From Patescibacteria group bacterium (lineage in GTDB: Bacteria; Patescibacteriota; Patescibacteriia; Patescibacteriales; JAQVLT01): a stretch of DNA of 64,000 bases. The notes below the pieces were generated by a model. The model saw nothing but the letters and a program-made list of their open reading frames with translations, searched no databases and was not told the origin of the DNA. Below are positions 5,290 to 63,387 of the stretch, piece after piece. Numbering within the stretch: the first letter of the stretch is position 1; each line of letters begins with the position of its first letter. The position numbers were made by a program, and so were the translations under genes. The stretch spans positions 10,102 through 74,101 of the forward strand of contig JAQVLT010000006.1 of NCBI GenBank assembly GCA_028704015.1. Reading direction: 5' to 3'.

Positions 5290-6543
5290 CTATTCATAGC
5301 GTAACGCTTCTACCGGTTCCAACTTTGAAGCTTTCCTTGCTGGATACAAACCAAAAATTAAACCTATAATCATCGCCACAAACAAAGCCAGAAGAATTGA
5401 CCAGATAGACACGGAAAATGTCCAATCATAATCAAGCGCCTGAATGACAATTGCAATCAAAAAAGAAAAAATCACTCCGCTTATTATTCCAATAACTCCG
5501 CCGATAGAAGTAATAATTATTGCTTCTATTAAAAATTGCGTAGTAATATTAGAATTATTCGCTCCAACCGCTTTACGTAAACCAATTTCGCGAGTGCGCT
5601 CGGTCACGGAAACCAGCATAATATTCATAATGCCAATACCCCCGACAAGAAGAGACAACGCGGCCATCGCGGCAAGAAAAAAACGCAAAGCGTCGGTGAT
5701 CGTCGTGATCATATCCAACGCTTCAGCGGCACTACTTATCGTAAAATCATCGCTAGCTCCGCTCTTGTCAGTAATATCATGACGTTCGCGCAAAGTAACC
5801 ACCGCATCTTCCATTGCCTTGTCCATGTTTTCTTCATAATCAACCTTGGCACGAATCAAACCAAGATGATTAATGCCAAACAATAATTTTTGCGCCGTTT
5901 TAATCGGAATAATTATTTGGTCGTCGTAATCCTGAAAAGCGATTTTCCCGCGCTCTTTCATAACACCGATTACTTCAAAAGTATGCTTTTTTATTTTAAT
6001 ACGCTCGCCAACCGCATCTGAATTTCCAAATATTTCATCTTTTGCTTTACTACCCAATACCACTACACGCGCCAAACTATTTTCTTCTTCTTCGGTAAAA
6101 AATCTGCCTTCCGCTACTTCGCCGCCTTCAACCGCCAAATACCCAACCGTTGAACCGCGCAAGGTCGTGTCATATGAGTTTGATTGCCAGCTCGCCGTGC
6201 CGTTGCCCATGCTATAACCGGCAACTTCAACAAAATTCGGGACATTTTTTTTGTCACGTAAAGCCAAGGCATCTTCATAAGTTAATGTTGTGATTACTAC
6301 TCCCATCACAGACGCCGGCGGACCTTTTTCCTCTGATTTCCCCGGCATAATGCCGACTAAATTTGTTCCCAAACTTTTAACTTGCGCCACAATCAAACTT
6401 TGCGCTCCGGCGCCAACCGAAACTATAATAATCACCGCCGCCACGCCAATAATAATCCCGAGCATAGTCAAAAAACTTCTCGCCTTATTAGCCAGAAGCG
6501 CCACCAATGACATTTTAATGGATTGTCTGATTAGAGAAAACAT
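5290..6543 (-). CDS. ABC transporter permease, MacB/FtsX family (paralog)
   Basis: 417 aa. Same architecture as 3855-5129, with the motif REIGLRKAVGA. Confidence 0.85.
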   Translation of the reverse strand: MFSLIRQSIKMSLVALLANKARSFLTMLGIIIGVAAVIIIVSVGAGAQSLIVAQVKSLGTNLVGIMPGKSEEKGPPASVMGVVITTLTYEDALALRDKKNVPNFVEVAGYSMGNGTASWQSNSYDTTLRGSTVGYLAVEGGEVAEGRFFTEEEENSLARVVVLGSKAKDEIFGNSDAVGERIKIKKHTFEVIGVMKERGKIAFQDYDDQIIIPIKTAQKLLFGINHLGLIRAKVDYEENMDKAMEDAVVTLRERHDITDKSGASDDFTISSAAEALDMITTITDALRFFLAAMAALSLLVGGIGIMNIMLVSVTERTREIGLRKAVGANNSNITTQFLIEAIIITSIGGVIGIISGVIFSFLIAIVIQALDYDWTFSVSIWSILLALFVAMIIGLIFGLYPARKASKLEPVEALRYE

Positions 6544-6646
6544 TTAAAAAATTTAAAATGCAAAAATCAAAATGAAAAATTAATGTATTTCGTTCCGCCC
6601 GCAGGCGGGACTCAATATTTTTAATTTTTGATTTTTAAATTTTGAT

Positions 6647-8027: not shown

Positions 8028-9854
8028 TTATTTTTGGCTCTCTTTAACGTAAGTAACTACTTCATCGCCTTCGTTCAAGCCTTCAAGTATCTCAATCATG
8101 CCGCTATCGCCCTTAAGTCCGGTCTTTACCGGCACCTCAATTAATTTACCATTTTTTAAAACCCGAGCTAATTTTGTTTTTACGCCGCTGCCGTTGCCGT
8201 TTTTCTCAATTATTGCGCGCGCCGGAGCGAAAAGCGCATTTTCTTTCTTATCTGTAATAATCACCGCGTTAGCCGTCATTCCCGGTTTAATATTATTATA
8301 ATATTCCTCGCTAACTTTTCCGTCATGAACCAGCCTAATTGTCACTTTGTAATAAACCACGTCTTGAATTACGGTTTCCGCTGGCTCAACAAAAGCAACT
8401 TCTCCGGAAAACTTAACATCTTCTCCAAAAGCATCCAATGTTATCTCGGATAAATCGCCAACTTTGACTTTGTAAATATCGGCTTCAGAAATATCAATTT
8501 TTACTTCATAATCATTATTACCAACCATCGCCAACACATTTTCCGTCGCATTAACTTGCTCGCCTATTTTATAATTTGATTCAGTCACCACGCCGTCTAT
8601 CGGCGCTTTAATAATGCTGTCTTCAACTTGTTTTTTGGCAATTTCCCATGCCGCCTCCGCTTGCGTTAATTGCGCTTGATACAAAGAAATATCCTGGCTT
8701 CTGGGCGAAGCTTCTGTTTGATTTAATTGCGCCTTAGCTAAATCCCAAGCTTTCAAGGCGCCATCAACTTGAGTTTGCGCGGTAGACAATTGTTTCTCGC
8801 CGCTTTTTTCCGCTGTCGTTAAACTATTTTTAGCGGTTTTAATAGCATCATCAAGCGCCAAAATAGCATCAGTCAAATTTTGTTTGGCAGACTGCACCGC
8901 TGCTATTGCCGTATTAATACCGTTCTGATTTGTGCTAATTGTAGTTTTATAAACATCAAGTTCTGTTTGCAAAAAAGCGGAAGAAGTAATGCTTTTTTCC
9001 AAAGATTTATAGCAATAATTCAAAGCCTCATAAGTTTTATTTAGCAAAATCACGCAGTCATTAGCGGCTTGATTAATACTTGCTTCGTTTATATTTATTT
9101 CAGCTTTTGCCAGGCTGGATTGTGCCGGACTAATTAATGCCTTAGCGTCATTATAGCTTAATTTGGTGTTAGCTAAATATGAAGTGTCTAAAACACTTAA
9201 AGTATCCTCTGCGTCCGTATCTTTTAAAATAGTATTGATATTATCAAGAGCTGCGTTTGCTTCGTCAATTTTTAGTTCAATAGTAGTTAAAGCATTAGTT
9301 TTTTTATTTTCTACTGCTTGGCGATAAGAACTTTTAATTGGCGATGTGGATTCTAAATCGGCTAATTTATTTTTAGCTTGTTCAATGCTTTCACTAACTG
9401 TTTTTTCAGTTTTATCTTGCTCATCCAAGGCGGAGTAATAAGCGCTTTTTGCCTTGGAAACACTGGTTTGGCTAACTCCCAACTCCTCTACCGTCGCGCC
9501 GGCAAAAAGTTTATTTAAATTTGCCTGAGCAACCAAATAGTTTGCATAAGCCTCTTTCTCTTTTAAAACATACGAACGGTTATCCAACTCGGCTAAAATT
9601 TGATCTTTTATTACCTTGTCACCAATATTAACTGACAACTTCGCCACTTTACCGCTGACTAAAAAATTTAAATCTATTTTTTCCGCCGCCTTAATTGAGC
9701 CGGTCTCACTAACGCTTTGGATTAATTCTCCTTTTTTAACTTTTTCGGTAGTATACTCCTCCTGCGGTTTTTTATTAAAAATAAAATAACCCGCAATAAT
9801 AACTATCAATGCTACCAATATAATTATTATAATTTTTTTCTTTGTTTTTATCAT
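8028..9854 (-). CDS. HlyD/MacA-family periplasmic adaptor with long coiled-coil insert
   Basis: 608 aa. N-terminal TM, lipoyl-like segment VSGKVAKLSVNIGDKV, and a long Ala/Gln/Lys-rich coiled coil. It lies in an operon with MacB-type genes. Confidence 0.8.
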   Translation of the reverse strand: MIKTKKKIIIIILVALIVIIAGYFIFNKKPQEEYTTEKVKKGELIQSVSETGSIKAAEKIDLNFLVSGKVAKLSVNIGDKVIKDQILAELDNRSYVLKEKEAYANYLVAQANLNKLFAGATVEELGVSQTSVSKAKSAYYSALDEQDKTEKTVSESIEQAKNKLADLESTSPIKSSYRQAVENKKTNALTTIELKIDEANAALDNINTILKDTDAEDTLSVLDTSYLANTKLSYNDAKALISPAQSSLAKAEININEASINQAANDCVILLNKTYEALNYCYKSLEKSITSSAFLQTELDVYKTTISTNQNGINTAIAAVQSAKQNLTDAILALDDAIKTAKNSLTTAEKSGEKQLSTAQTQVDGALKAWDLAKAQLNQTEASPRSQDISLYQAQLTQAEAAWEIAKKQVEDSIIKAPIDGVVTESNYKIGEQVNATENVLAMVGNNDYEVKIDISEADIYKVKVGDLSEITLDAFGEDVKFSGEVAFVEPAETVIQDVVYYKVTIRLVHDGKVSEEYYNNIKPGMTANAVIITDKKENALFAPARAIIEKNGNGSGVKTKLARVLKNGKLIEVPVKTGLKGDSGMIEILEGLNEGDEVVTYVKESQK

Positions 9855-10360: not shown

Positions 10361-10972
10361 TTACGCGAATTTTCTAATCACCCCTCTAACCACCCCTTGG
10401 ATCAGCGGATCTTGAACATATATCGGCTGCATTGCAGAATTCGCCGGTTGTAAACGAATGCGATTCGGTTCGCGGTAAAATTTCTTGAGCGTCGCATAGG
10501 CATTATTAAGAAGAGCAACTACCACGTCGCCATTTCTTGGCGAGGGATTACGCTCCACGATAACAAAATCTCCGTTCAAAATTCCTTCTTCAATCATTGA
10601 CTCGCCTTTTACTTTCAAGACATAACTATTAAAACTATCAGTGACAAAATCTGCTGGCACGGCAATAGTCTCTGTATCTTCAACCGCTTCAATCGGCTCA
10701 CCGGCCGTAATCAATCCAGCTAACGGCAACTCAATCGCCTCTGCCCAATTAACCTCAGTTTTAACCAGCTCAATGGAACGCGCCTCGTTAAAAGATTTTT
10801 TTAAAAATCCTTTAGCCTTCAAATTGTCCAAATGTGATTGCACGGTCGCCGGACTGGACAAATCAAAATGCTCGCCGATTTCCCGCACTGTCGGCGCGTA
10901 GCCGTGCTTGCGCGTGAAATCATTGATAAAATCCAAAATTTGTCGTTGGCGTTTGGTGAGATTGTTGGTCAT
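10361..10972 (-). CDS. lexA: LexA repressor
   Basis: 203 aa. N-terminal wHTH (GYAPTVREIGEHF) and S24 peptidase motifs GESM and K in TLKKF. Confidence 0.9.
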   Translation of the reverse strand: MTNNLTKRQRQILDFINDFTRKHGYAPTVREIGEHFDLSSPATVQSHLDNLKAKGFLKKSFNEARSIELVKTEVNWAEAIELPLAGLITAGEPIEAVEDTETIAVPADFVTDSFNSYVLKVKGESMIEEGILNGDFVIVERNPSPRNGDVVVALLNNAYATLKKFYREPNRIRLQPANSAMQPIYVQDPLIQGVVRGVIRKFA

Positions 10973-11004
10973 ATTTTTGAAGTTAGTTATATTTTTGAAA
11001 TAGA

Positions 11005-11610
11005 CGCCCAGCCATAAATGGCCGAGCTACGTTCTTCCGCAAGCCCCATTAATGGGGCTTTGATTTTCTAGCCCAATCCGTTTACGGTTGGGCGATTGGG
11101 ATATATTCCAATATTTTTATAATATTATTTTCACCGTGATGTTTATTTTGATTCTGAATATAACTTTTAATAAATGGCGTCCCATTACTGCTTAAAGTTA
11201 AACCTCCAAATCCTTGTTGCCATTGGATGTATTTTTCTCCAAATATATTATTAATCTCGTGCGCGCTATATCCCTTTATTTGACCAACAAAATCCGATAA
11301 ACTAATTTGTGGCGGGACAGAACATAATAAGTGACAATGATCTAAATAGCTATTGAATTCAATTACTTTACTGCCCAAATTTTCACTTTTTCCGCAAATC
11401 AACCTACTTAATTTTTTGCTTATCTCCTCATCAATCAATCTCTGTCTATTTTTTGTACACCAAATTATATGGTAATATAATTTATAAAAATTATGTGGCA
11501 TATTTTTTCCTTTCACGCCGCCCAGCCATAAATGGCCGGGCTACATTTTTCCGTAAGCCCCATTAATGGGGCTTTTATTTTTATTAGCCCAATCCGTTTA
11601 CGGTTGGGCG
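11005..11610 (-). mobile_element. IS200/IS605-like unit: Y1 transposase gene bracketed by two about 90 bp triple-hairpin repeats in direct orientation
   Basis: Repeats at 11005-11094 and 11519-11610 are near-identical. Each holds three hairpins (GCCCAGCCATAAATGGCCGGGC, AAGCCCCATTAATGGGGCTT, GCCCAATCCGTTTACGGTTGGGC). Confidence 0.75.
11082..11516 (-). CDS. IS200/IS605-family Y1 (HUH) transposase TnpA, RAYT-like
   Basis: 144 aa. YHIIWCTKNR N-terminus, HUH motif DHCHLL, and C-terminal catalytic Tyr context SYIQNQ. The last codons lie inside the flanking repeat. Confidence 0.85.
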   Translation of the reverse strand: MKGKNMPHNFYKLYYHIIWCTKNRQRLIDEEISKKLSRLICGKSENLGSKVIEFNSYLDHCHLLCSVPPQISLSDFVGQIKGYSAHEINNIFGEKYIQWQQGFGGLTLSSNGTPFIKSYIQNQNKHHGENNIIKILEYIPIAQP

Positions 11611-11648
11611 AAGATGGCTAGCAATTCCTAAATCATAAATCTATTTAT

Positions 11649-11677
11649 AGTATACCCGAACAAAAAACGAACGTCAA
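11649..11677 (-). promoter_or_regulatory. sigma70-like promoter (TTGACG-17-TATACT) with a GTTC-N7-GTTC direct repeat in the spacer
   Basis: Minus strand reads cTTGACGTTCGTTTTTTGTTCGGGTATACT. On the plus strand, GAAC is at 11658-11661 and at 11669-11672. Confidence 0.55.
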
Positions 11678-13680: not shown

Positions 13681-13700
13681 CCTGCCTGCCGGTAGACAGG
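13681..13700. repeat. GC-rich palindrome family member (CCTGCCTGCCGGTAGACAGG)
   Basis: Perfect or near-perfect hairpin downstream of the 13718 gene, flanked by AGCTTTGAGCTTGAAGCTT word repeats that recur at 14262-14295. Confidence 0.85.
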
Positions 13701-15556: not shown

Positions 15557-15578
15557 CCTGCCTGCCGGTAGGCGGGTC
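15557..15578. repeat. GC-rich palindrome family member (ACCTGCCTGCCGGTAGGCGGGT)
   Basis: Hairpin between the 15610 gene end and the 15542 gene start. Confidence 0.85.
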
Positions 15579-27672: not shown

Positions 27673-27820
27673 GCAAAATGGCCTTAAAAATCTAAAAATC
27701 TAAAAATCTAAAAAATTTTAGCTAACATTAAATAAAATATAAACTAAAAAATATTAGTAAATTTGACAAAAAAATCTCTCCGCCGATTTATACACAGCCG
27801 ATCTAACATAATAAAATGTA

Positions 27821-27955
27821 ATTGTTAATTGTTAATTGTTAATTGTTAATTGTTAATTGTTAATTGTTAATTGTTAATTGTTAATTGTTAATTGTTAATT
27901 GTTAATTGTTAATTGTTAATTGTTAATTGTTAATTGTTAATTGTTCTCTTACCAC
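27821..27955. repeat. tandem octamer AATTGTTA x about 17
   Basis: Perfect head-to-tail repeats read directly. They overlap the last codons and the stop of the Mur-ligase gene (..LTINN*). Confidence 0.95.
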
Positions 27956-29426: not shown

Positions 29427-29447
29427 TCTGCCTGCCGGCAGGCAGGA
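29427..29447. repeat. GC-rich palindrome family member (TCTGCCTGCCGGCAGGCAGGA)
   Basis: Hairpin between the FemAB-family gene end and the Mur ligase start, flanked by AT-rich inverted words (ATAATTTCTAAT / ATTAGAAATTGT). Confidence 0.85.
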
Positions 29448-29469: not shown

Positions 29470-30546
29470 TTAAACGGCTCTCCTTATTTTTCTCAACAAC
29501 CCGTAAATTCCATACCATCCTCTACTAAACACCGCGTCAAACGTCCCCGGATAATCATATTCAAATCCGGCGAAGCCTTTTTTGAACCGCGTTACGCCCG
29601 GCCATTTCGTTTCGCTGATACCATAAAAATCATAATATTTATAACCCAACTCTTTGGCTAATTTAATGCAGTGCCATTGCAAGGCGTATGGCGCCATTAA
29701 ATTTCTGAATTCGTTGGAAGACGCACCGTGCATATAAGTAACCGTGTCGCCAAAAAACGCCACAATATTTCCGGAAATTATTTTCCCTTGATACTTCGCG
29801 AGAAATAATTTTACATTTAATTCAGAATTTGTAATTCGTAACCTGCCTGCCGGTAGGCAAGGTTGATAATTCGTAATTGATAATTGCTTTTGATAATATT
29901 CTTTCTCATGTAATCTAAATTTATCGCGTGTCTTGGTTTGCTCCATGATCTTCCACCACTCATCAAAATCAGCGCTCCCCTCTCCTTGAGCTTTGTCCTC
30001 CCTCCTTACGAAGGAGGGAGATAGAGGGAGGTCCTGGGGTGAGGTTATTATCTCAATTCCCTTTTTCTCCGCCAACCGGATATTATATCTCGTCTTTTCA
30101 TGCATATCTTTCAATAATTCTTCCTCGGACTTAGACAAATCAAGAAGTAAAGTTTTAGATGGCTGAATGTCAATTGTGCGCGTAACGCGTAACGCATAAC
30201 GCGTAACGTCAAATGTTGGCTCAAAACGTAAAAAAATAATTTTCTCTTTCTTAGCTTTTTTATTAATTTCATTAAAGAAAAAAGTTATATGTTCTACGTT
30301 ATGCGTTATGCGAAAGATTGGTCCGCGTGGCGAATACCAATACTTCATTCCGAGCGGCAATCGCTTCTCAATTAAAGTCGCAGCCGCCATGAACTCTCCT
30401 TTATCTTCTACGCCAAAACGCAAAACTTTATTCCCCGCGCTTGCCTGAAATTCACCCCATTCATAGGACTCCAAAAACGCGCTATGCTCCTCGGCACTTA
30501 CAAATTTATTCAATTCTTCTTTATTTTTTATTTCAACTAAATTCAT
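29470..30546 (-). CDS. FemAB-family peptidoglycan interpeptide-bridge aminoacyltransferase
   Basis: 358 aa with the N-terminus ...FLESYEWGEFQ and the C-terminal GVTRFKKGFAG pattern. It carries at least 4 in-frame repeat-derived inserts (see findings). Confidence 0.7.
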   Translation of the reverse strand: MNLVEIKNKEELNKFVSAEEHSAFLESYEWGEFQASAGNKVLRFGVEDKGEFMAAATLIEKRLPLGMKYWYSPRGPIFRITHNVEHITFFFNEINKKAKKEKIIFLRFEPTFDVTRYALRVTRTIDIQPSKTLLLDLSKSEEELLKDMHEKTRYNIRLAEKKGIEIITSPQDLPLSPSFVRREDKAQGEGSADFDEWWKIMEQTKTRDKFRLHEKEYYQKQLSITNYQPCLPAGRLRITNSELNVKLFLAKYQGKIISGNIVAFFGDTVTYMHGASSNEFRNLMAPYALQWHCIKLAKELGYKYYDFYGISETKWPGVTRFKKGFAGFEYDYPGTFDAVFSRGWYGIYGLLRKIRRAV

Positions 30547-31078: not shown

Positions 31079-31897
31079 TTACAACGGACTTTTGATATTT
31101 TTTAAACTTGGTTTTGTCACCTGCGTATAAATTTGAGTAGTCCTGATATTGCAATGACCCAAGAGCTCCTGCACATATCTCACGTCTGTGCCGTTTTCTA
31201 AAAGATGCGTAGCAAAACTATGACGCAATGAATGGAAAGTTGCGTCTTTTTTTATTTTAGCTTTGGTCAAGGCATTTTCAAAAATCTTCTGCGCCGTTCT
31301 GTCGGTTAGCTTGCCGCCTTGATTACTTTCAAAAACCAAATCTTCGCCTCGCCTTCCCGCCAAATAATTTTTTAATTCTTCCCGCAATTTCTCCGGCAGA
31401 AGCGTAACCCGATCTTTTTTTCCTTTAGCTTCTTTCAAGTGAATAAAATTATTGGCGAAATCGACATCTTTTACTTTTAAATTTATGGCCTCGCTCACTC
31501 GGAAGCCAGCACCGTAAGATAAGGCAACCAATAGTTTGTGTTTGCCATTGCTTATCGCACCAATCACTTCTTCAATTTCCTCGCGCGACAAAACCACCGG
31601 CAATTTTTTGGAAGTCTTGGCAAATTTTAAATCAATCGCCACCGCGCTTTTAAAAATTTCCCGGTAAAGATGTTTAATGGCGTTGAGATGAAGATTTATC
31701 GTCTGCGACGACAAACCGCGTTCTTGTTTTTTCAGCAAATATTTTTTTATCAACTCAATCTCCGGATCTTTTTTGACTACTTTAATAAATTTAAAATAAT
31801 CAACCAAGCAACCAAGGTAGCTCTTAATCGTTTGCCGGCTGTAATTCCGCAGTTTTAATTCATTCTCAATTTTTACCAACAACTCTTTAAATTCCAT
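31079..31897 (-). CDS. tyrosine recombinase, integron-integrase-like but lacking the IntI-specific insertion
   Basis: 272 aa. Box I GAGFRVSEAINLKVKDVDF, KGKKDR, box II HSLRHSFATHLLENGTDVRYVQELLGHCNIRTTQIYTQV (R..H-x-x-R..H..Y). N-terminal SAM-like RNYSRQTIKSYL. Confidence 0.9.
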   Translation of the reverse strand: MEFKELLVKIENELKLRNYSRQTIKSYLGCLVDYFKFIKVVKKDPEIELIKKYLLKKQERGLSSQTINLHLNAIKHLYREIFKSAVAIDLKFAKTSKKLPVVLSREEIEEVIGAISNGKHKLLVALSYGAGFRVSEAINLKVKDVDFANNFIHLKEAKGKKDRVTLLPEKLREELKNYLAGRRGEDLVFESNQGGKLTDRTAQKIFENALTKAKIKKDATFHSLRHSFATHLLENGTDVRYVQELLGHCNIRTTQIYTQVTKPSLKNIKSPL

Positions 31898-32007
31898 ATT
31901 ATTATGTTATACTTAACAACAAGAGTGCTGTTACTAACAAAATACCAAAATTTCGCATAATATACAACGACAAGTAGTTAATTAACATAAAATTCGTATA
32001 AAAACTA

Positions 32008-32186
32008 GTTCCGCCGAAATCGCTCGCTTACGCTCGCTCCTTTTCGGCGGAACGGCTTCGGAATCCTTCCTCGTCCCGCTCAGTCGCTCGCTCACGCTCG
32101 CGACATCGCGGAACTCGGAATACGCGAAATTGCCTTTCGTCCCGAAGCGTCGGGACTCCGGCAACTTCGCTTATTCCGAAGCCGTT
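32008..32186 (+). repeat. 179-bp GC-rich ORF-less element, copy E1 (at the attI-like junction)
   Basis: GTTCCGCCGAAA...TTTCGGCGGAAC hairpin, then a GGCTTCGGAAT...ATTCCGAAGCC long stem, bounded by GTT on both sides. Identical to E2 and E3 by eye. Confidence 0.95.
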
Positions 32187-32581: not shown

Positions 32582-32631
32582 GATAAATTAAATTGCCAAA
32601 ATTATTTTATTAATAGAGGCTTTTTATTACA

Positions 32632-32833
32632 GCGTATAACAACGCATATCTGGCTACGGAAATTGTGCATTAATAGAAACCTTGAGGTGGCACAATTTCC
32701 TCCGCCCAAATCCCGCACTAATTTTTGTGGGATTTGGATGGAGTTAAGCATTTAAAGAAGTTTGCATTAATTTATTGCTTGTTTAAGAAACAACGAAAAA
32801 TTAGCGCGGGACTTCAGATGATGCGTAAACGTT
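32632..32833 (+). other. attC-like site 1
   Basis: GCGTATAAC-AA-CGCATATCTGG ... CTTCAGATGATGCG-TAAAC-GTT. Confidence 0.65.
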
Positions 32834-33009
32834 CCGCCGAAATCGCTCGCTTACGCTCGCTCCTTTTCGGCGGAACGGCTTCGGAATCCTTCCTCGTCCC
32901 GCTCAGTCGCTCGCTCACGCTCGCGACATCGCGGAACTCGGAATACGCGAAATTGCCTTTCGTCCCGAAGCGTCGGGACTCCGGCAACTTCGCTTATTCC
33001 GAAGCCGTT
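32831..33009 (+). repeat. 179-bp element copy E2
   Basis: Identical to E1 by eye. It starts at the GTT of attC-like site 1. Confidence 0.95.
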
Positions 33010-33104: not shown

Positions 33105-33335
33105 ATGAATACTAAACCTTACTACAAATACAAAGATTTTTCTCTTTTTCACGGCAACTGCCTTGATATTTTAGCTAAAATTCCAGAAAATTCGGTTGAT
33201 ATGATCTTCGCCGATCCACCCTACCTACTCTCAAATGGCGGTTTTACCTGTCATGCTGGTCAAATGGTTAGCGTAAATAAAGGCCAGTGGGATGTAAGCA
33301 ACGGCCTAAAGAAAGATTTTGAATTTCATCTATGA
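33105..33335 (+). pseudogene. 5' fragment of a DpnA-like (beta-class, DPPY) N6-adenine DNA methyltransferase
   Basis: 76 aa. TKPYYKYKDF...SVDMIFADPPYLLSNGGF...VSVNKGQWD closely parallels the N-terminus of M2.DpnII (DpnA) as I recall it. It stops after about 25 percent of the expected length, and its TGA overlaps the next ATG. Confidence 0.7.
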
Positions 33336-35250: not shown

Positions 35251-35348
35251 GTCGCCTAACAACCGATATCCGGTTCGGGGCTCAGCTCGCCCCTCTCCCA
35301 TATTTTTGCTCCCGTTGGTCGCAAAAACATCGGATATCGCGAAACGTT
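35251..35348 (+). other. attC-like site 2
   Basis: GTCGCCTAAC-AA-CCGATATCCGG ... CATCGGATATCG-CGAAAC-GTT. Its R'' is the exact reverse complement of GTTAGGCGAC at 33007. Confidence 0.7.
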
Positions 35349-35524
35349 CCGCCGAAATCGCTCGCTTACGCTCGCTCCTTTTCGGCGGAACGGCTTCGGA
35401 ATCCTTCCTCGTCCCGCTCAGTCGCTCGCTCACGCTCGCGACATCGCGGAACTCGGAATACGCGAAATTGCCTTTCGTCCCGAAGCGTCGGGACTCCGGC
35501 AACTTCGCTTATTCCGAAGCCGTT
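35346..35524 (+). repeat. 179-bp element copy E3
   Basis: Identical to E1 by eye. Confidence 0.95.
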
Positions 35525-35938: not shown

Positions 35939-36058
35939 TCATATAACAAAGAATATCTGGTTCAAGAATTTTTCTTGTTAATGTATAAGGAGTAAAAATT
36001 CTTTCACCCAAATTTTATTTCACTACGTTCAATAAAACTTCAGATATTCTTATACGTT
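35939..36058 (+). other. attC-like site 3
   Basis: TCATATAAC-AAA-GAATATCTGG ... TTCAGATATTC-TTATAC-GTT. Confidence 0.65.
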
Positions 36059-36232
36059 CCGCCGAAATCGCTCGCTTACGCTCGCTCCTTTTCGGCGGAA
36101 CGGCTTCGGAATCCTTCCTCGTCCCGCTCAGTCGCTCGCAAGCTCGCGACATCGCGGAACTCGGAATACGCGAAATTGCCTTTCGTCCCGAAGCGTCGGG
36201 ACTCCGGCAACTTCGCTTATTCCGAAGCCGTT
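36056..36232 (+). repeat. 177-bp element copy E4 (short variant GCTCGCAAGCTCGC)
   Basis: Same as E1 except for a 2-nt shorter inner hairpin. Confidence 0.95.
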
Positions 36233-36376
36233 AGCTGAAATATATATTTTTCTTTTGCCCTGCGGGGCAACTCTTAAAAAGAATTCAATTTTTGTTTTTT
36301 TATTAATTAGAAAGGGGTAATAAGTGTTTTCTTCGCTACGCTACAAAAACGATTTATTAATTAATCCAAAAAATAT

Positions 36377-39811: not shown

Positions 39812-39830
39812 TTAATTAAAATGCTATAAT

Positions 39831-39896
39831 GAGTTTTAGATTATGGGCATTCACCCCTAACCCCTCTGCCCAAAATCTAAAACGAAAAAAACAAAA
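39831..39896 (+). repeat. conserved hairpin with C-rich loop (TTTTAGATTaTGGGCA-TTCACCCCTAACCCCTC-TGCCCAAAATCTAAAA), copy 1
   Basis: A near-identical copy lies at 47763-47825. Both sit after the last ORF of a cassette. Confidence 0.85.
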
Positions 39897-39954
39897 CTGA
39901 ATTCTTTTTGCGAGTAATCCCAATAGCTATCGGGATTAAAGAAAAATATATACA

Positions 39955-40054
39955 TCAGCTAACACGGCATATCCGGTTGCGGCTTTTATACAAAAGCCTA
40001 CACCCACATTTGCCTCCGCTACGCTACGGCAAACATCAGATATGCCGAAACGTT
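39955..40054 (+). other. attC-like site 4
   Basis: TCAGCTAAC-AC-GGCATATCCGG ... CATCAGATATGCC-GAAAC-GTT. Its R'' is the reverse complement of GTTAGCTGA at 36230. Confidence 0.7.
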
Positions 40055-40228
40055 CCGCCGAAATCGCTCGCTTACGCTCGCTCCTTTTCGGCGGAACGGC
40101 TTCGGAATCCTTCCTCGTCCCGCTCAGTCGCTCGCAAGCTCGCGACATCGCGGAACTCGGAATACGCGAAATTGCCTTTCGTCCCGAAGCGTCGGGACTC
40201 CGGCAACTTCGCTTATTCCGAAGCCGTT
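40052..40228 (+). repeat. 177-bp element copy E5 (short variant)
   Basis: Identical to E4 by eye. Confidence 0.95.
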
Positions 40229-40420
40229 ATACGCAATTCAAAAAATATTTTTCTTTTAATAAGGAATTTTGACAGGCTTTTTAAAAAGGGGAATAAATTT
40301 GTTTTTTTATTTATTAGAAAGGGGTAATATTGTGTTTTTTCTGCTTTTGGAGGCGCAGAAAAAACGATTTACTTACAAGGGGAAAACGGGTACTATACAA
40401 TTACTTATTAGGAATAAACT

Positions 40421-47611: not shown

Positions 47612-47762
47612 CCGTTAGTTTACAATTCCATCGGAGCTGTGTAAAAACAAAAGTACGTTTAATAGTATCACCAAAAAGTTTTAGGGATCAAACCCAAATA
47701 AAAGACAAAAATTCCCTCCCCTTAAACCCCTTCCTTTTTGCCTTTTATTTGAAAAGAATAAG

Positions 47763-47825
47763 GAGTTTTAGATTTTGGGCATTCACCCCTAACCCCTCTG
47801 CCCAAAATCCAAAACAAAAAACAAA
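47763..47825 (+). repeat. conserved hairpin with C-rich loop, copy 2
   Basis: Matches 39831-39896. It is preceded by a second AT-stem/C-rich-loop hairpin at about 47697-47755. Confidence 0.85.
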
Positions 47826-47879: not shown

Positions 47880-48005
47880 GCGTATAACACGGCATAATCT
47901 GGTTCCAGAATTTTTCATTAACAGTTAATAATAAGGAGTAAAAAATTCTTACACCCATATTTGCCTCCGCTACGCTACGGCAAACATCAGATATGCCGAT
48001 ACGTT
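47880..48005 (+). other. attC-like site 5
   Basis: GCGTATAAC-AC-GGCATAATCTGG ... CATCAGATATGCC-GATAC-GTT. Its R'' is the reverse complement of GTTATACGC at 40226. Confidence 0.7.
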
Positions 48006-48181
48006 CCGCCGAAATCGCTCGCTTACGCTCGCTCCTTTTCGGCGGAACGGCTTCGGAATCCTTCCTCGTCCCGCTCAGTCGCTCGCTCACGCTCGCGACA
48101 TCGCGGAACTCGGAATACGCGAAATTGCCTTTCGTCCCGAAGCGTCGGGACTCCGGCAACTTCGCTTATCCCGAAGCCGTT
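48003..48181 (+). repeat. 179-bp element copy E6
   Basis: As E1 with one substitution (TTATCCCGAAG). Confidence 0.95.
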
Positions 48182-48999: not shown

Positions 49000-49121
49000 T
49001 CCGATAACACGGCATATCCAGCTCGGACTTTTCCGAAAGTCCTCACGCAAATTTTTGTTTCTCTTTACTTTATAATAAATAAAGGTGGAGAAACAAAATC
49101 TTCGGATGATGCCGAAACGTT
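49000..49121 (+). other. attC-like site 7
   Basis: TCCGATAAC-AC-GGCATATCC ... GGATGATGCC-GAAAC-GTT. Its R'' is the reverse complement of GTTATCGGA at 48593. Confidence 0.7.
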
Positions 49122-49315
49122 CCGCCGAAATCGCTCGCTTACGCCTGCCTACCGGCAGGCAGGCTCGCTCTTTTTCGGCGGAACGGCTTCGGAATTCTTC
49201 CTCGTCCCGCTCAGTCGCTCGCAAGCTCGCGACATCGCGTAACTCGGAATAAGCGAAATTGCCTTTCGTCCCGAAGCGTCGGGACTCCGGCAACTTCGCT
49301 TATTCCGAAGCCGTT
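49119..49315 (+). repeat. 197-bp element copy E7 (divergent; carries a nested GC-rich palindrome)
   Basis: Short variant with several substitutions. CCTGCCTACCGGCAGGCAGG (49143-49164) is inserted in the first hairpin loop. Confidence 0.95.
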
Positions 49316-49349
49316 GTACGAAATATCATTCACCTTTAATTCGTAAAAT

Positions 49350-49777: not shown

Positions 49778-49828
49778 TCGTACAACACGCGATATCCAAA
49801 ATTAGAACTTCAAATATGCCGAAACGTT
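49778..49828 (+). other. attC-like site 8 (compact)
   Basis: TCGTACAAC-AC-GCGATATCC-AAAATTAGAAC-TTCAAATATGCC-GAAAC-GTT. Confidence 0.7.
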
Positions 49829-49853
49829 ATCTGAAATTTCACCCCTCCTCACT

Positions 49854-50518: not shown

Positions 50519-50686
50519 TCACCTAACACCGCGATAAGCGGCTACAGAAAAGTTTCTTAATTAATATAATAATGAGTAAACTTTTCTTCCGGCCCAAATT
50601 TTGCAGATGAATAATAATTATAATAATGTATCTGCAAAACTTCGCTTATTCCGAAGCCGTTAAAACATCGCATACGCCGAAACGTT
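50519..50686 (+). other. attC-like site 9 (compound: two GTT ends, contains the 3' 25 nt of the 179-bp element)
   Basis: TCACCTAAC-AC-CGCGATAAGCGG ... ACTTCGCTTATTCCGAAGCC-GTTAAAAC-ATCGCATACGCC-GAAAC-GTT. Confidence 0.6.
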
Positions 50687-50753
50687 AGCTGAAATATTAT
50701 TCGGGGAGCGCCCCGCAAAAAAATTTATATAATTCTTAATCAATCAAAATAAT

Positions 50754-51446: not shown

Positions 51447-51533
51447 CCACATAACACGGCTTAAACGGAAATTTCTTACAAAAATTAACTAAATGCTCGG
51501 CTAACGCCTCGCACTTCGTTAAGCCGAAACGTT
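51447..51533 (+). other. attC-like site 10
   Basis: CCACATAAC-AC-GGCTTAAACGG ... CGTTAAGCC-GAAAC-GTT. Confidence 0.7.
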
Positions 51534-51557
51534 AGGCTAAATATTTTTTTAAATACT

Positions 51558-59654: not shown

Positions 59655-59680
59655 ATTTATTATTTTTAATTCGTAATTAT

Positions 59681-60274
59681 AACGTATCCAAATATCTGAA
59701 GTTTGTTGGAGTGAAACGAAAGCAAATTTGGGTTGAAAAAGTTTTTCACTCCTTAATTTAAAAATCTAATAAGGCAAAACTTTTGAGCCAGCTATTTGGT
59801 GTTGTACGATGTATCGTTCACCCGTTTAACCAGCTCGTATCTTTTAATATCTCATTCATTTGTTCGGACAAGTCGGCGAAGTCTTCATAATAAACAACTT
59901 TTTTAGTACAAGGTATGCCAGCGATCATCATCGACGGCTCAACTCCTTTTTTGCAAAGCGCTATACATGGGATATTGTTTTCCTGCGCCATTTGAAATTC
60001 CATGCCAACGCCCATTGAAGGACTCGAGACCTCGCCGATAAAAAGCTGGCATTTAGTAATAACTTGGTAGGTACGGTCATAAAATTCACGCGGAGTTTCC
60101 TTGCTATCCCAAAAATCGGGGTAAGTACCAATGACTTTATCAAAATACGGCTCACAAAGTTTCATGAGCTGTTTATAGACGGGCAAATAATCTTGCCCGA
60201 ACAAATGAATTGGTCCAAATACGTAGGCAATTTTCATAATTTACGGATTAAGGGTGAATGATATTTCGTACAAC
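59681..60274 (-). mobile_element. orphan integron-type cassette (NDT-like gene plus its own attC-like site) inserted between core genes
   Basis: Minus strand reads G|TTGTACGAA...CDS...TCGTACAAC-AC-CAAATAGCTGG...CTTCAGATATTTGG-ATAC-GTT. Homology to array cassette C8 begins exactly at GTT. Confidence 0.7.
59818..60237 (-). CDS. nucleoside 2-deoxyribosyltransferase-like protein (inverted duplicate of 49350-49769)
   Basis: 139 aa, differing from 49350-49769 at 2 residues. The 3' half of the gene is identical at the DNA level by eye. Confidence 0.6.
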   Translation of the reverse strand: MKIAYVFGPIHLFGQDYLPVYKQLMKLCEPYFDKVIGTYPDFWDSKETPREFYDRTYQVITKCQLFIGEVSSPSMGVGMEFQMAQENNIPCIALCKKGVEPSMMIAGIPCTKKVVYYEDFADLSEQMNEILKDTSWLNG

Positions 60275-61192: not shown

Positions 61193-61235
61193 CCCTGCCT
61201 GCCGCCTGCCTGTCCGGTAGGCAGGGCAGGCAGGT
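61193..61235. repeat. GC-rich palindrome family member (double-length)
   Basis: CCCTGCCTGCCGCCTGCCTGTCCGGTAGGCAGGGCAGGCAGGT. Confidence 0.85.
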
Positions 61236-62238: not shown

Positions 62239-63387
62239 TTAATTGATAACCTGCCTGCCGGTAGGCAAGGTTTTTAGTTGAAAATTAACTTCCCTACCTC
62301 TCGCTTTCGGCGCATGATAACCAGCGAGGAGACAAGCGGACTTTAAAATTTCTTCTTCGCTTTTATTCTCACTTAATTTTAAATTTTCTATATTTAGCTC
62401 CTTCGGAATTTGTAATTTAAAATTTGATAATTCATTTAAAACCTGCCTGCCCTGCCTGCCGGACAGGCAGGCGGTAGGCAAGGTTGAAAATTGAAAATTG
62501 AAAATTCTAACAACAGTCAGCGGTCCTACTTCGTTCTTTAATTCTACCACAATATCTCCCTTTTTTGCCAATTTTTCTAATGCTTCATTATCTCTTTTAT
62601 CTCTACCCACTATAATTAATATATATTTTTTATCCATCTTTGCCCAAAAAGGCCGTCCATATTTAAGCAACTCTACATCTTTAGGCCCACACTCCGGCCA
62701 ATTCTTTATCATCTCTCGTAATTTATCACAAAATTGCGCTTCAGTTAGCAAACATCCGCCAGCAGGAGCAGGATATTTTTTGATGCCAAATTTTTTTGCG
62801 AGTTTCATCTGCCTTTCCCGGCCGCGGCCTTCAATGTCCAATAATTTTTTTCTGTTTATCAAGCCTATTTTTTCATAAATTGTCTCTGGCAATAATTTCG
62901 CGGAAAGTGGACGCAAAACTTCCACCCCGGCTAATTTTTCCACTCGTCCAAGCGACTGTTTATTTTGCGACATCGGACGCTGGCCCAAAACTTCACCCGT
63001 AGCAATAACCTCTCCCGCCCCCTCTCTCCTGCCTCTCCCCGACTCGCTATCGCTCGTCACCCCTCTCCTAATTAGGAGAGGGGTCGGGGGAGAGGTGAGG
63101 ACGGACGCTTTTTTTATCATGAACGCATGGCAATCAATACAAGGATTTAGACATTTGCCATGTCCACACTTGGGATTTTTTACTATTTCCAAAAGTTCTT
63201 TACTAATATTAATAACTTCCAATGGAACTTTAAGTTCTTCAACCGCTTCACGCGCTTTATTGGCGTTAAAAAAATTACTCTCAAAAGCAACCGCGGTCAC
63301 ATCAATTCCTTGCGCTTGTAAAATTTTTACCGCGAGCATTGAGTCCAATCCGCCGGATAATAAAACTAGAGCTTTAATCTTTTTCAT
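62239..63387 (-). CDS. PP-loop ATP pyrophosphatase (ThiI/MnmA-like tRNA thiolation-type) carrying three in-frame repeat inserts
   Basis: N-terminal SGGLDS PP-loop and CIDCH Cys pair. Inserts lie at 62248-62272, 62441-62485 and 63009-63100. Confidence 0.6.
   Translation of the reverse strand: MKKIKALVLLSGGLDSMLAVKILQAQGIDVTAVAFESNFFNANKAREAVEELKVPLEVINISKELLEIVKNPKCGHGKCLNPCIDCHAFMIKKASVLTSPPTPLLIRRGVTSDSESGRGRREGAGEVIATGEVLGQRPMSQNKQSLGRVEKLAGVEVLRPLSAKLLPETIYEKIGLINRKKLLDIEGRGRERQMKLAKKFGIKKYPAPAGGCLLTEAQFCDKLREMIKNWPECGPKDVELLKYGRPFWAKMDKKYILIIVGRDKRDNEALEKLAKKGDIVVELKNEVGPLTVVRIFNFQFSTLPTACLSGRQGRQVLNELSNFKLQIPKELNIENLKLSENKSEEEILKSACLLAGYHAPKARGREVNFQLKTLPTGRQVIN

Follow-up and report, generated by a model that had tools for sequence, protein, structure and literature searches.

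How did a short GC-rich palindrome come to lie inside one of seven near-identical repeats, and does its position mark a place in the repeat that takes up foreign sequence? The question is raised by a 64,000-nt stretch of DNA from a Patescibacteria group bacterium (GCA_028704015.1, contig JAQVLT010000006.1, positions 10,102–74,101 of the forward strand), referred to below as the window. It contains seven copies of a repeat named E, of which the seventh (E7) alone carries the palindrome, in the loop of its first hairpin. The 20-mer of E7 is a later, precise and duplication-free insertion of one member of a dispersed family. We consider it rather probable that the locus was built up in three layers, namely a cassette platform with a XerA-like recombinase, an E module placed at the crossover point of that platform, and a later insertion of the palindrome.

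The E copies are GC-rich repeats of 174–176 nt (E7 194 nt with the insert), all on the forward strand and all intergenic: E1 (32008–32183), E2 (32831–33006), E3 (35346–35521), E4 (36056–36229), E5 (40052–40225), E6 (48003–48178) and E7 (49119–49312). An alignment showed a per-column identity of 84% with flanks included and near-identical bodies, and the number of matches to the repeat or the palindrome expected from shuffles of the window was zero. The length of E7 equals 176 nt plus the 20-nt insert minus a 2-nt deletion common to E4 and E5. E7 was predicted to fold into hairpin 1 (49119–49184), followed by a large domain that is closed by a helix between the segment after hairpin 1 and the 3′ end. 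Within hairpin 1, a 5′ stem (49119–49130) and a 3′ stem (49172–49184) enclose a loop of 41 nt with the insert (49131–49171). In six of the seven copies this loop reads TCGCTCGCTTACGCTCGCTCC, flanked by the arms GTTCCGCCGAAA and TTTTCGGCGGAAC, and in E7 it reads TCGCTCGCTTACG + CCTGCCTACCGGCAGGCAGG + CTCGCTCT and carries one C>T change in addition. The preliminary description had placed the palindrome in this loop, where it was indeed found (CCTGCCTACCGGCAGGCAGG, 20 nt), at 49144–49163 on the forward strand rather than at 49143–49164. It was also right that the other six copies share one loop sequence, which is 21 nt and not 22 nt long. The insertion point can be drawn at three positions (TTAC^G^C^T, i.e., after TTAC, TTACG or TTACGC) with 1–2 nt of microhomology at the junction, and comparison of E7 with the other E copies showed no target duplication.

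The alignment argues that the 20-mer in E7 is a derived, secondary sequence that was copied into an existing repeat. E7 corresponds to the other E copies plus exactly 20 nt, a clean insertion, and it has a 2-nt deletion and a C>A change in common with E4 and E5. As E7 is nested in the E4/E5 subgroup, ancestral presence of the 20-mer would need repeated identical exact deletions. Homologous bodies from other genomes (families F, G, H and J, described below) contain no palindrome in the loop of hairpin 1, and the E7 insert is identical to the consensus of the palindrome family found elsewhere. With the 20-mer removed, four private substitutions remain in E7, one in E6 and none in the other copies. 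It had been left to an alignment of all seven copies whether the E7 insert is derived or is ancestral with deletions in the others; the subgroup markers and the palindrome-free outgroup bodies speak for a derived insert.

The palindrome is one of 10 units at eight sites in the 64 kb, where shuffles gave an expectation of zero; the copies outside E7 have 1–3 mismatches. Besides E7, copies were found between the genes for a NUDIX protein and a sugar dehydratase (13681–13700), 15 nt upstream of the start codon of a dTDP-sugar epimerase (15557–15576), 24 nt downstream of femAB (29427–29446) and inside femAB (29842–29861), where the copy is in frame (PCLPAGR) within a translated AT-rich heptamer repeat. 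A nested pair, in which a 21-nt copy lies in the centre of a 20-nt copy, is located between LemA and TPM genes (61194–61234). One more copy occupies the last 11 codons of a PP-loop ATPase gene (62250–62269), and a second nested pair of the same build lies in the same coding sequence (CDS; 62442–62482). Three of the eight sites (29842, 62250 and 62442) are thus inside CDSs and in frame, with copies that are 21 nt long or contain extra bases, and the others are intergenic, beside ordinary chromosomal genes. Further copies in the window, some of them in CDSs, had been reported in the preliminary description, and they were recovered with offsets of 1–2 bases (29842, 62250, 61194 and 62442). Its view that the palindrome is mobile or templated agrees with the clean 20-nt gain in E7 and with matches to the consensus at seven other window sites and in many contigs resembling the candidate phyla radiation (CPR). 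The FemAB palindrome sits in a translated (CAATTAY)n repeat, and a FemAB homolog in locus L005 has a plain (AATTACA)4 at this place. All asymmetric copies of the window read TACCGGC on the sense strand; an orientation rule relative to genes was rejected, as metagenome loci split into six with the same and nine with the opposite orientation.

AT-rich heptamer tandem repeats (CAATTAT, AATTACA or AATTTTC) were observed in conserved genes at 29470–30546 (femAB), at 62239–63387 and in L005 at 5921–6622. They are translated (ITNYQ, NFQFS, LQITNYKLQIN) at positions that differ between orthologs, which marks them as microsatellites inside coding sequences of CPR genomes.

A scan of metagenome contigs with CCTGCCTRCCGGYAGGCAGG gave at least 120 palindrome-bearing stretches and a scan of viral contigs gave 48. 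These stretches were heterogeneous, with GC contents from 29% to 71%. Among the matches listed, the palindrome was an isolated 20-nt GC island in 59 loci with a GC content of at most 43%, and no T-run followed it in the AT-rich loci. High-GC matches showed related palindromes in other organisations; one example is the variant palindrome CATGCCTACCGGCAGGCAGGC in L174 (3916–4142), a 'viral' contig of 53% GC that ends in a 21-nt tandem array in which this variant is repeated at least 10 times. In seven other CPR loci with the same platform as the window, about 115 kb in all, the palindrome was not found, which suggests that it has expanded in particular lineages.

Four kinds of context recurred. 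Copies were found in apical loops of larger hairpins (L026, with a 14-bp stem, L032, L046, L103 and L108), in the centre of another copy, which is split 11|9 (L052, L059, L105, L127 and the two compound window sites), in the D- or T-loops of incomplete tRNA copies that lie beside intact ones (L119, L171, L066 and L086), and in AT-rich heptamer tandem repeats. In L086 the intact tRNA-Ser represents an empty site compared to two partial copies that bear the palindrome in the D-loop. All filled/empty pairs (E7 versus E1–E6, the L086 tRNA-Ser, the tRNA fragments and the nested copies) showed a clean gain without target duplication, and the footprint was exactly 20 nt in at least eight independent filled/empty comparisons. 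With 20 random positions per site on the same contigs as controls, flanking inverted repeats of at least 7 nt were present at 11% of 76 sites versus 0.8% of controls, and flanking direct repeats of at least 8 nt at 20% versus 2.6%. The direct repeats are pre-existing AT-rich heptamer tandem repeats, and they were rejected as target-site duplications. Judged from these sequence contexts, the palindrome tends to land where DNA would be single-stranded in a fold, that is, in hairpin loops, in its own centre and in heptamer repeats, which are prone to slippage. Tandem partial tRNA copies (5′ or 3′ fragments) were observed in L086 (4377–4871), L119 (640–860), L066 (300–360) and L171 (about 500), and the palindrome-bearing fragments look like remnants of serial integrations at tRNA genes. 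Interruption of functional tRNAs by the palindrome was rejected, since ARAGORN placed the palindromes in partial fragments beside intact tRNAs.

Whether the loop of hairpin 1 is a place for cargo, as had been proposed, can be judged from the body families of other genomes. The loops of E (TCGCTCGCTTACGCTCGCTCC), F (TCACGCGCTCCGCTTGTTC), G (TCGCGCGCTACGCTTGCTC) and J (TACGCTACGCTCC) have the motif ACGCTnGCTCC in common, and between-genome identity was 0.67–0.84 in the loop versus 0.46–0.71 in the stems. The insert in E7 splits this motif. An insert in the loop was found in one of the seven E copies and in none of about nine copies of the other body families, and the payloads of the platform are gene cassettes between sites; the equation of the loop with a cargo position was therefore not upheld. 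The related proposal that the loop tolerates insertions holds only weakly: hairpin 1 is kept in the predicted fold, with the palindrome stacked on top, and loop length differs between families (13, 19, 19, 21 and 27 nt), but E7 is the most degenerate copy and scored 42.7 bits on a covariance model of hairpin 1 compared to 67.7 bits for the other six copies, i.e., 25 lower. One further match of this model, in L064, was within coding sequence and was set aside as probably spurious. On the predicted fold, the loop caps a duplex arm at its far end, and added length would do the least harm there. The simplest reading is that the insertion would be neutral or mildly damaging rather than functional, in the oldest and most decayed E copy.

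What the E copies themselves are was inferred from the sites at which they lie. The window and four other genomes, L178 and L005 included, were found to contain a compact dif-like site of about 30 bp, which consists of a left arm (TTCAGATAT), a centre of 8–9 nt ending in AAC, the boundary C|GTT, and a right arm (TTAnnnGAAAT) that is an inverted repeat of the left arm. Compact sites are preceded by a conserved ACCCAAATTT-hairpin-AAAC leader. The recombinase-proximal left arm, AATTCGTATAAAAACTA|GTT (31991–32007, forward strand), is abutted by E1 and is conserved in the same recombinase-proximal position in five or more further loci (L005, L007, L177, L178 and L180). At E7, the leader of the upstream cassette, with left arm TTCGGATGAT and centre GCCGAAAC, ends at C|GTT before the repeat (49100–49118), and the trailer or right arm GTTGTACGAAAT starts the cassette after it (49313–49324). 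Sites without an E body follow on the same strand: AACTTCAAATATGCCGAAAC|GTTATCTGAAAT at the end of the cassette after E7 (49806–49837), two adjacent compact sites (50636–50695), the first of which has a leader identical to the last 21 nt of E, and ACTTCGTTAAGCCGAAAC|GTTAGGCTAAAT (51513–51542).

In E-bearing junctions the leader ends in AAC and E starts with GTTCC, and E ends in GAAGCC before a trailer that starts with GTT. Joined to each other, the two ends of E give AACTTCGCTTATTCCGAAGCC|GTTCCGCCGAAAT, which closely reproduces the compact site AACTTCAAATATGCCGAAAC|GTTATCTGAAAT. The L005 junction that is homologous to the E5 junction is compact and without E. From precisely C|GTT onwards, and across the 5′ leader of the cassette, it is 92% identical to the window, which indicates that cassette boundaries coincide with C|GTT and that E is a discrete unit there. 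Judged from this anatomy, E is a strongly folded module without open reading frames (ORFs) that sits exactly at the crossover point C|GTT in seven junctions, and not a carrier of cargo. It resembles a right arm at its 5′ end and a leader at its 3′ end; as the joined ends recreate a full site, E would behave like a miniature cassette or site insert.

A second, inverted-orientation site type was also observed (ATACATCAGCTAACACGGCATATCCGG at 39950–39976, forward strand, with others at 32627, 35934 and 48995). This type, ATACATCAGCTAACACGGCATATCTGG, resembles an inverted compact site 60–100 nt upstream of each leader, and it was present in L178, L179, L007, L005 and L181 as well. Site orientation thus alternates as in pdif modules, and the short segment between the sites could be invertible. 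A solitary leader with a site-like sequence lies outside the array on the reverse strand (59669–59703), between an M18 aminopeptidase gene and a 139-aa ORF.

Bodies other than E were found at the same place in other genomes: F (L007, 177 nt, three copies), G (L181, 174 nt, at least four copies), H (L177, partial) and J (L179, shorter). E, F, G, H and J follow a common plan, in which a right-arm-like 5′ end forms hairpin 1 and the stretch that directly follows hairpin 1 is paired to the final 11–16 nt of the body. The closing helix is GGCTTCGGAAT/ATTCCGAAGCC in E, TGTGCA..TGCGAT/ATCGCA..TGCACA in F and GCGCGCGGATA/TATCCGCGCGC in G. Both helices were recovered by RNAalifold, with 18 of 50 pairs kept through double changes. 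Folding with DNA parameters showed that all four bodies fold alike and that the bottom strand is more stable by 5.6–9.6 kcal/mol in four of four. An internal strand of E would pair with both E ends, and by these comparisons the platform is one that recurs in other Patescibacteria with different bodies of about 175 nt sharing one fold. A search of the whole window against Rfam gave no match at gathering scores, with noise only at E<1 around E3/E4, and E was rejected as a known RNA. A scan of representative genomes with the hairpin-1 stem of E gave two unrelated terminator hairpins only.

Directly left of E1 and divergent from the array lies the gene for a XerA-like tyrosine recombinase of 272 aa (31079–31897, reverse strand). 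The protein scored 218.9 against a cutoff of 220 on the NF040815 XerA/'integron integrase' model and, on the integron-integrase model TIGR02249, 216 (cutoff 265). It aligned end to end with Pyrococcus XerA (4a8e) and also aligned to XerC and XerD, and its alignment to IntI4 (2a3v) skips residues ~211–244, i.e., the IntI-specific insertion is missing. A classical integron was rejected on these grounds, as the recombinase has no IntI domain and scores below the integron-integrase cutoff. The search for homologs gave more than 7,500; among the best 120, lengths are 272–307 aa (one of 401 aa) and identities 68–100%, mostly about 70%, and the source is Patescibacteria wherever it is named. The recombinase and its homologs match the Xer-related 'Cand' subgroup (PMC8138268).

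A one-way cassette array of about 20 kb adjoins the recombinase and extends to at least about 52.3 kb. The genes between E copies have restriction and defence functions; the array contains genes for DpnI, Bro-N, a cupin, a protease with Shedu, an EcoRI methylase with DUF2130, GmrSD, AAA and subtilase, DUF218 and others; no database record was found for the product of the gene downstream of E7. Where sequence upstream of the recombinase was available, most homolog loci likewise had a mixed series of genes running divergently from it; L005, L007, L178, L179 and L181 are clear cases. The array is in a chromosomal context and GC skew does not change sign across it; a chromosomal dif at the terminus was rejected in view of the missing GC-skew switch. 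Cassettes share a promoter/ribosome-binding-site-like leader, AAATTTGTTTTTTTATTTATTAGAAAGGGGTAATA, which was observed in the window (40226–40390 and 36230–36330), in L005 (2655–2816) and in L178 (7471–7528 and 8808–8865), and which is 92% identical between L005 and the window although a different first gene follows it in each. Two multi-gene cassettes carry at their 3′ ends (39826–39889 and 47758–47821) a 64-nt repeat, 94% identical between them, that forms the hairpin TTTTAGATT..GGGCA...TGCCC..AATCTAAAA, and similar hairpins starting with CACCCCT occur in L178, L179 and L007. A 76-aa ORF (33105–33335) lies immediately upstream of the DpnI-like gene, itself a member of a methyl-directed restriction family; the ORF matched adenine methyltransferases in the N-terminus alone and may be a remnant methylase. 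The sole difference between the window and the contig L001 from the NCBI metagenome-assembled genome (MAG) was a stretch of 125 nt (27820–27944) compared to 100 nt (8363–8462) upstream of a Mur ligase gene, which is probably a repeat-length difference between assemblies.

Concerning the way in which the palindrome moves, it would do so as a folded single strand with the help of a trans-acting enzyme, for which an HUH/Y1-type transposase would be the most plausible class. Chemistry of this class (IS200/IS605, or the REP-associated tyrosine transposases, RAYT) is what the lack of duplication, the hairpin-only element and the preference for single-stranded folds together point to. One IS200-type TnpA is encoded in the window (11082–11516, reverse strand, 144 aa), which scored 89 bits on the IS200 model (cutoff 55) and 23 bits on the RAYT model (cutoff 80). 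Its gene is flanked by the same block of about 95 nt with three GC-rich hairpins on both sides (10990–11110 and 11517–11650). The block holds a perfect 20-nt palindrome, AAGCCCCATTAATGGGGCTT, and a GTAG-headed hairpin, and a LexA gene lies just downstream (10361–10972). A link between the E7 palindrome family and this TnpA was considered but found no support, since the end hairpins differ and TnpA homologs are not enriched near palindromes.

Several observations weigh against the proposed history. No enzyme linked to the palindrome was found in the window or at the palindrome loci; the hairpins that flank tnpA are unrelated to the palindrome in sequence and, within the window, were found at its own flanks alone; and homologs of TnpA were present at one of about 180 palindrome loci, i.e., without enrichment. 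Neither a conserved target word nor an orientation rule was found in the palindrome flanks of the window and the metagenome loci. The exact 20-mer occurs in differently organised high-GC contigs as well, and homology of all matches is not required. The test for hairpin contexts used a crude exact-match criterion, and a rank test gave p = 0.04. The E7 junction is known from this one assembly: the NCBI MAG of this organism (GCA_028707515.1) is broken within the array to one side of E7 and at about 49662 to the other, so that its contigs end on both sides of E7, and L001 and L002, which are identical to the window, do not reach E7 and offer no filled/empty polymorphism there. Besides, recombination at the C|GTT sites is something that we infer from anatomy alone.

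Part of this evidence would suit the main alternative, that there is no dedicated mobile element and that the 20-mer is copied through errors of repair or replication (template switching, microhomology-mediated templated insertion or gene conversion from another copy) at sites that break or at which replication forks stall. The insertion sites are structure-prone DNA (hairpins and microsatellites), the E7 junction shows 1–2 nt of microhomology, the copies in CDSs are 21 nt long or have extra bases, and a linked transposase, a target motif and an orientation rule are all missing. We nevertheless regard it as unlikely, since the footprints are very uniform (exactly 20 nt in those eight or more comparisons), the same sequence is kept across many different contigs, and repeated self-nesting at one 11|9 position fits an enzyme better than random repair. 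A perfect 20-bp dyad is also typical of sites bound by dimers, several copies lie just downstream or upstream of genes, and the sequence is highly conserved across contigs, all of which would suit a selected motif (a protein-binding operator, a hairpin acting as terminator or RNA stabiliser, or a target of restriction/modification) that regulates the cassette downstream of E7. Such a role is improbable in our view: copies are found inside CDSs, tRNA fragments and each other, no T-run follows them, they are missing from the seven other CPR loci with the same platform, and one of the seven E copies alone has one.

That the loop is a payload position which takes inserts as part of the function of E seems very improbable. 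The variation in loop length between families and the survival of the predicted fold would agree with it, but the loop sequence is conserved across genomes with a shared motif that the insert splits, foreign sequence is present in no other copy of any family, E7 is the most decayed E copy, and gene cassettes between sites are the real payloads. We give the least credence to an ancestral E7 loop that was lost in six copies, or to an assembly artefact. Within the E-bearing part of the array E7 has a distal position, no other copy is as diverged, and it is present in one assembly with no second one; on the other hand, the derived E4/E5 markers in E7 mean that at least two identical precise deletions would be needed, the outgroup bodies have no palindrome, and the insert is the consensus of a family present elsewhere. 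Other palindrome copies are also present in the NCBI MAG and Logan contigs of this organism, although these match the window at 100% identity and could stem from the same reads.

It is possible, though we put this forward tentatively, that two apparently undescribed things are stacked at this locus. One would be a CPR hairpin element of 20–21 nt that inserts precisely and without duplication into single-stranded loops, its own copies and translated microsatellites included. The other would be an integron-analogous gene-capture platform of Patescibacteria that is based on a conserved XerA-like 'Cand' recombinase with dif-like sites and optional folded, self-splinting modules of about 175 nt, whose internal-strand splint geometry, as modelled, suggests single-strand (bottom-strand) recombination. 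No description of the palindrome or of a cassette platform in CPR bacteria was found in the literature, of which the coverage of journals was partial. The nested insert alone is a modest curiosity, and its value lies in the footprint of a tiny hairpin element and in the pointer to the platform. E7 and E1–E6 form a rare filled/empty pair within one genome, which fixes the footprint as exactly 20 nt without duplication in a hairpin loop and limits the ways in which such elements could move in CPR bacteria, a group with little-known mobile DNA. A recombinase usually taken as the housekeeping Xer of candidate phyla adjoins an array of defence and restriction cassettes, exchangeable and with defined crossover sites, in most sampled genomes with upstream sequence. 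If it acts on the sites, this would provide a route for gene capture and immune-gene turnover in very small genomes and a new comparison point for the evolution of integrons from Xer systems.

Compared to integrons, the platform is similar in its layout, with a primary site beside a recombinase whose gene diverges from a co-oriented one-way array, in its species-specific, highly similar array repeats, ORF-less cassettes and defence cargo (10.1101/2024.07.02.601686), and in a repeat that folds with the bottom strand as the more stable one. Unlike integrons, it has a recombinase without the IntI insertion and below the integrase cutoff, minimal sites that are inverted repeats of about 30 bp of double-stranded DNA type with an AAC|GTT centre and appear distinct from the imperfect R''-L''/L'-R' hairpins of attC (57–141 nt, recombined as a folded bottom strand), bodies that are optional inserts at the crossover, and multi-gene cassettes with promoter-like leaders of their own. 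In the pdif modules of Acinetobacter, dif-like sites of about 28 bp, some in alternating orientation, flank accessory genes that are shuffled as modules (PMC13141974, PMC6449649). These and the integrative mobile elements exploiting Xer recombination (IMEX) resemble the platform in the use of a Xer-family recombinase and of sites of the 28-bp type, in which two inverted arms of about 11 bp enclose a centre of 6–8 bp (8–9 nt here). In CTX-type IMEX elements, a folded single strand mimics a Xer site. Sites of this kind lie at the dimer-resolution site of the chromosome (the replication terminus) or on plasmids, whereas the present array is chromosomal, beside the gene of a single recombinase and without a GC-skew switch at its position, with folded bodies of about 175 nt at the site centres and in Patescibacteria.

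Repetitive extragenic palindromic (REP) sequences are short (20–40 nt), GC-rich, imperfect palindromes, the loops of which are themselves insertion targets (PMC3733652, PMC1525189). Like REPs and their paired form (REPIN), which depend on RAYTs, the palindrome family consists of dispersed, non-autonomous, many-copy short GC-rich palindromes without target duplication, and REPs are thought to move as folded single-stranded DNA. However, the terminal GTAG/CGTC tag by which REPs are defined (PMC3733652) is not present in the palindrome, which has CCTG/CAGG ends and GTAG internally only, in one orientation of an asymmetric (G.T) form. Nor is the palindrome strictly extragenic, with copies in CDSs at three of eight sites and inside each other, and no RAYT, the gene of which REPs usually flank, was seen in the window, where the sole Y1 gene is of IS200 type and flanked by other hairpins. 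IS200/IS605 elements and their miniature derivatives, the palindrome-associated transposable elements (PATEs), share precise, hairpin-based transposition of single-stranded DNA without duplication, and a tnpA of this family is present in the window. IS200/IS605 elements insert 3′ of a fixed target of 4–5 nt and have distinct left and right end hairpins. The palindrome, in contrast, is a single 20-nt dyad as a whole element, has no common target word and is unrelated to the end hairpins of the tnpA.

Rickettsia palindromic elements (RPEs) are selfish elements that are found in frame in protein-coding and RNA genes and are retained in the products. They are about 100–150 bp long and restricted to Rickettsia, whereas the palindrome has a core of 20–21 nt and lies in pre-existing translated heptamer microsatellites. 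For RPEs, cf. the review PMC10969869. The GC clusters of yeast mitochondria (e.g., GC42) are about 42 nt long and mostly intergenic, with a putative AG target duplication and an unresolved mechanism (PMC4478555). They are similar to the palindrome in being GC-rich hairpins that are scattered in an AT-rich genome and that merge and shuffle with each other, and differ from it as the palindrome is bacterial, 20–21 nt long, free of duplication and nested at a fixed central position. Target-site duplication, which marks miniature transposable elements with inverted repeats (MITEs) and GC clusters, was absent from the filled/empty pairs of the palindrome. The palindrome thus works like REPs/REPINs, GC clusters and RPEs but departs from each of them in a defining feature, be it the terminal tag, the target duplication or the size.

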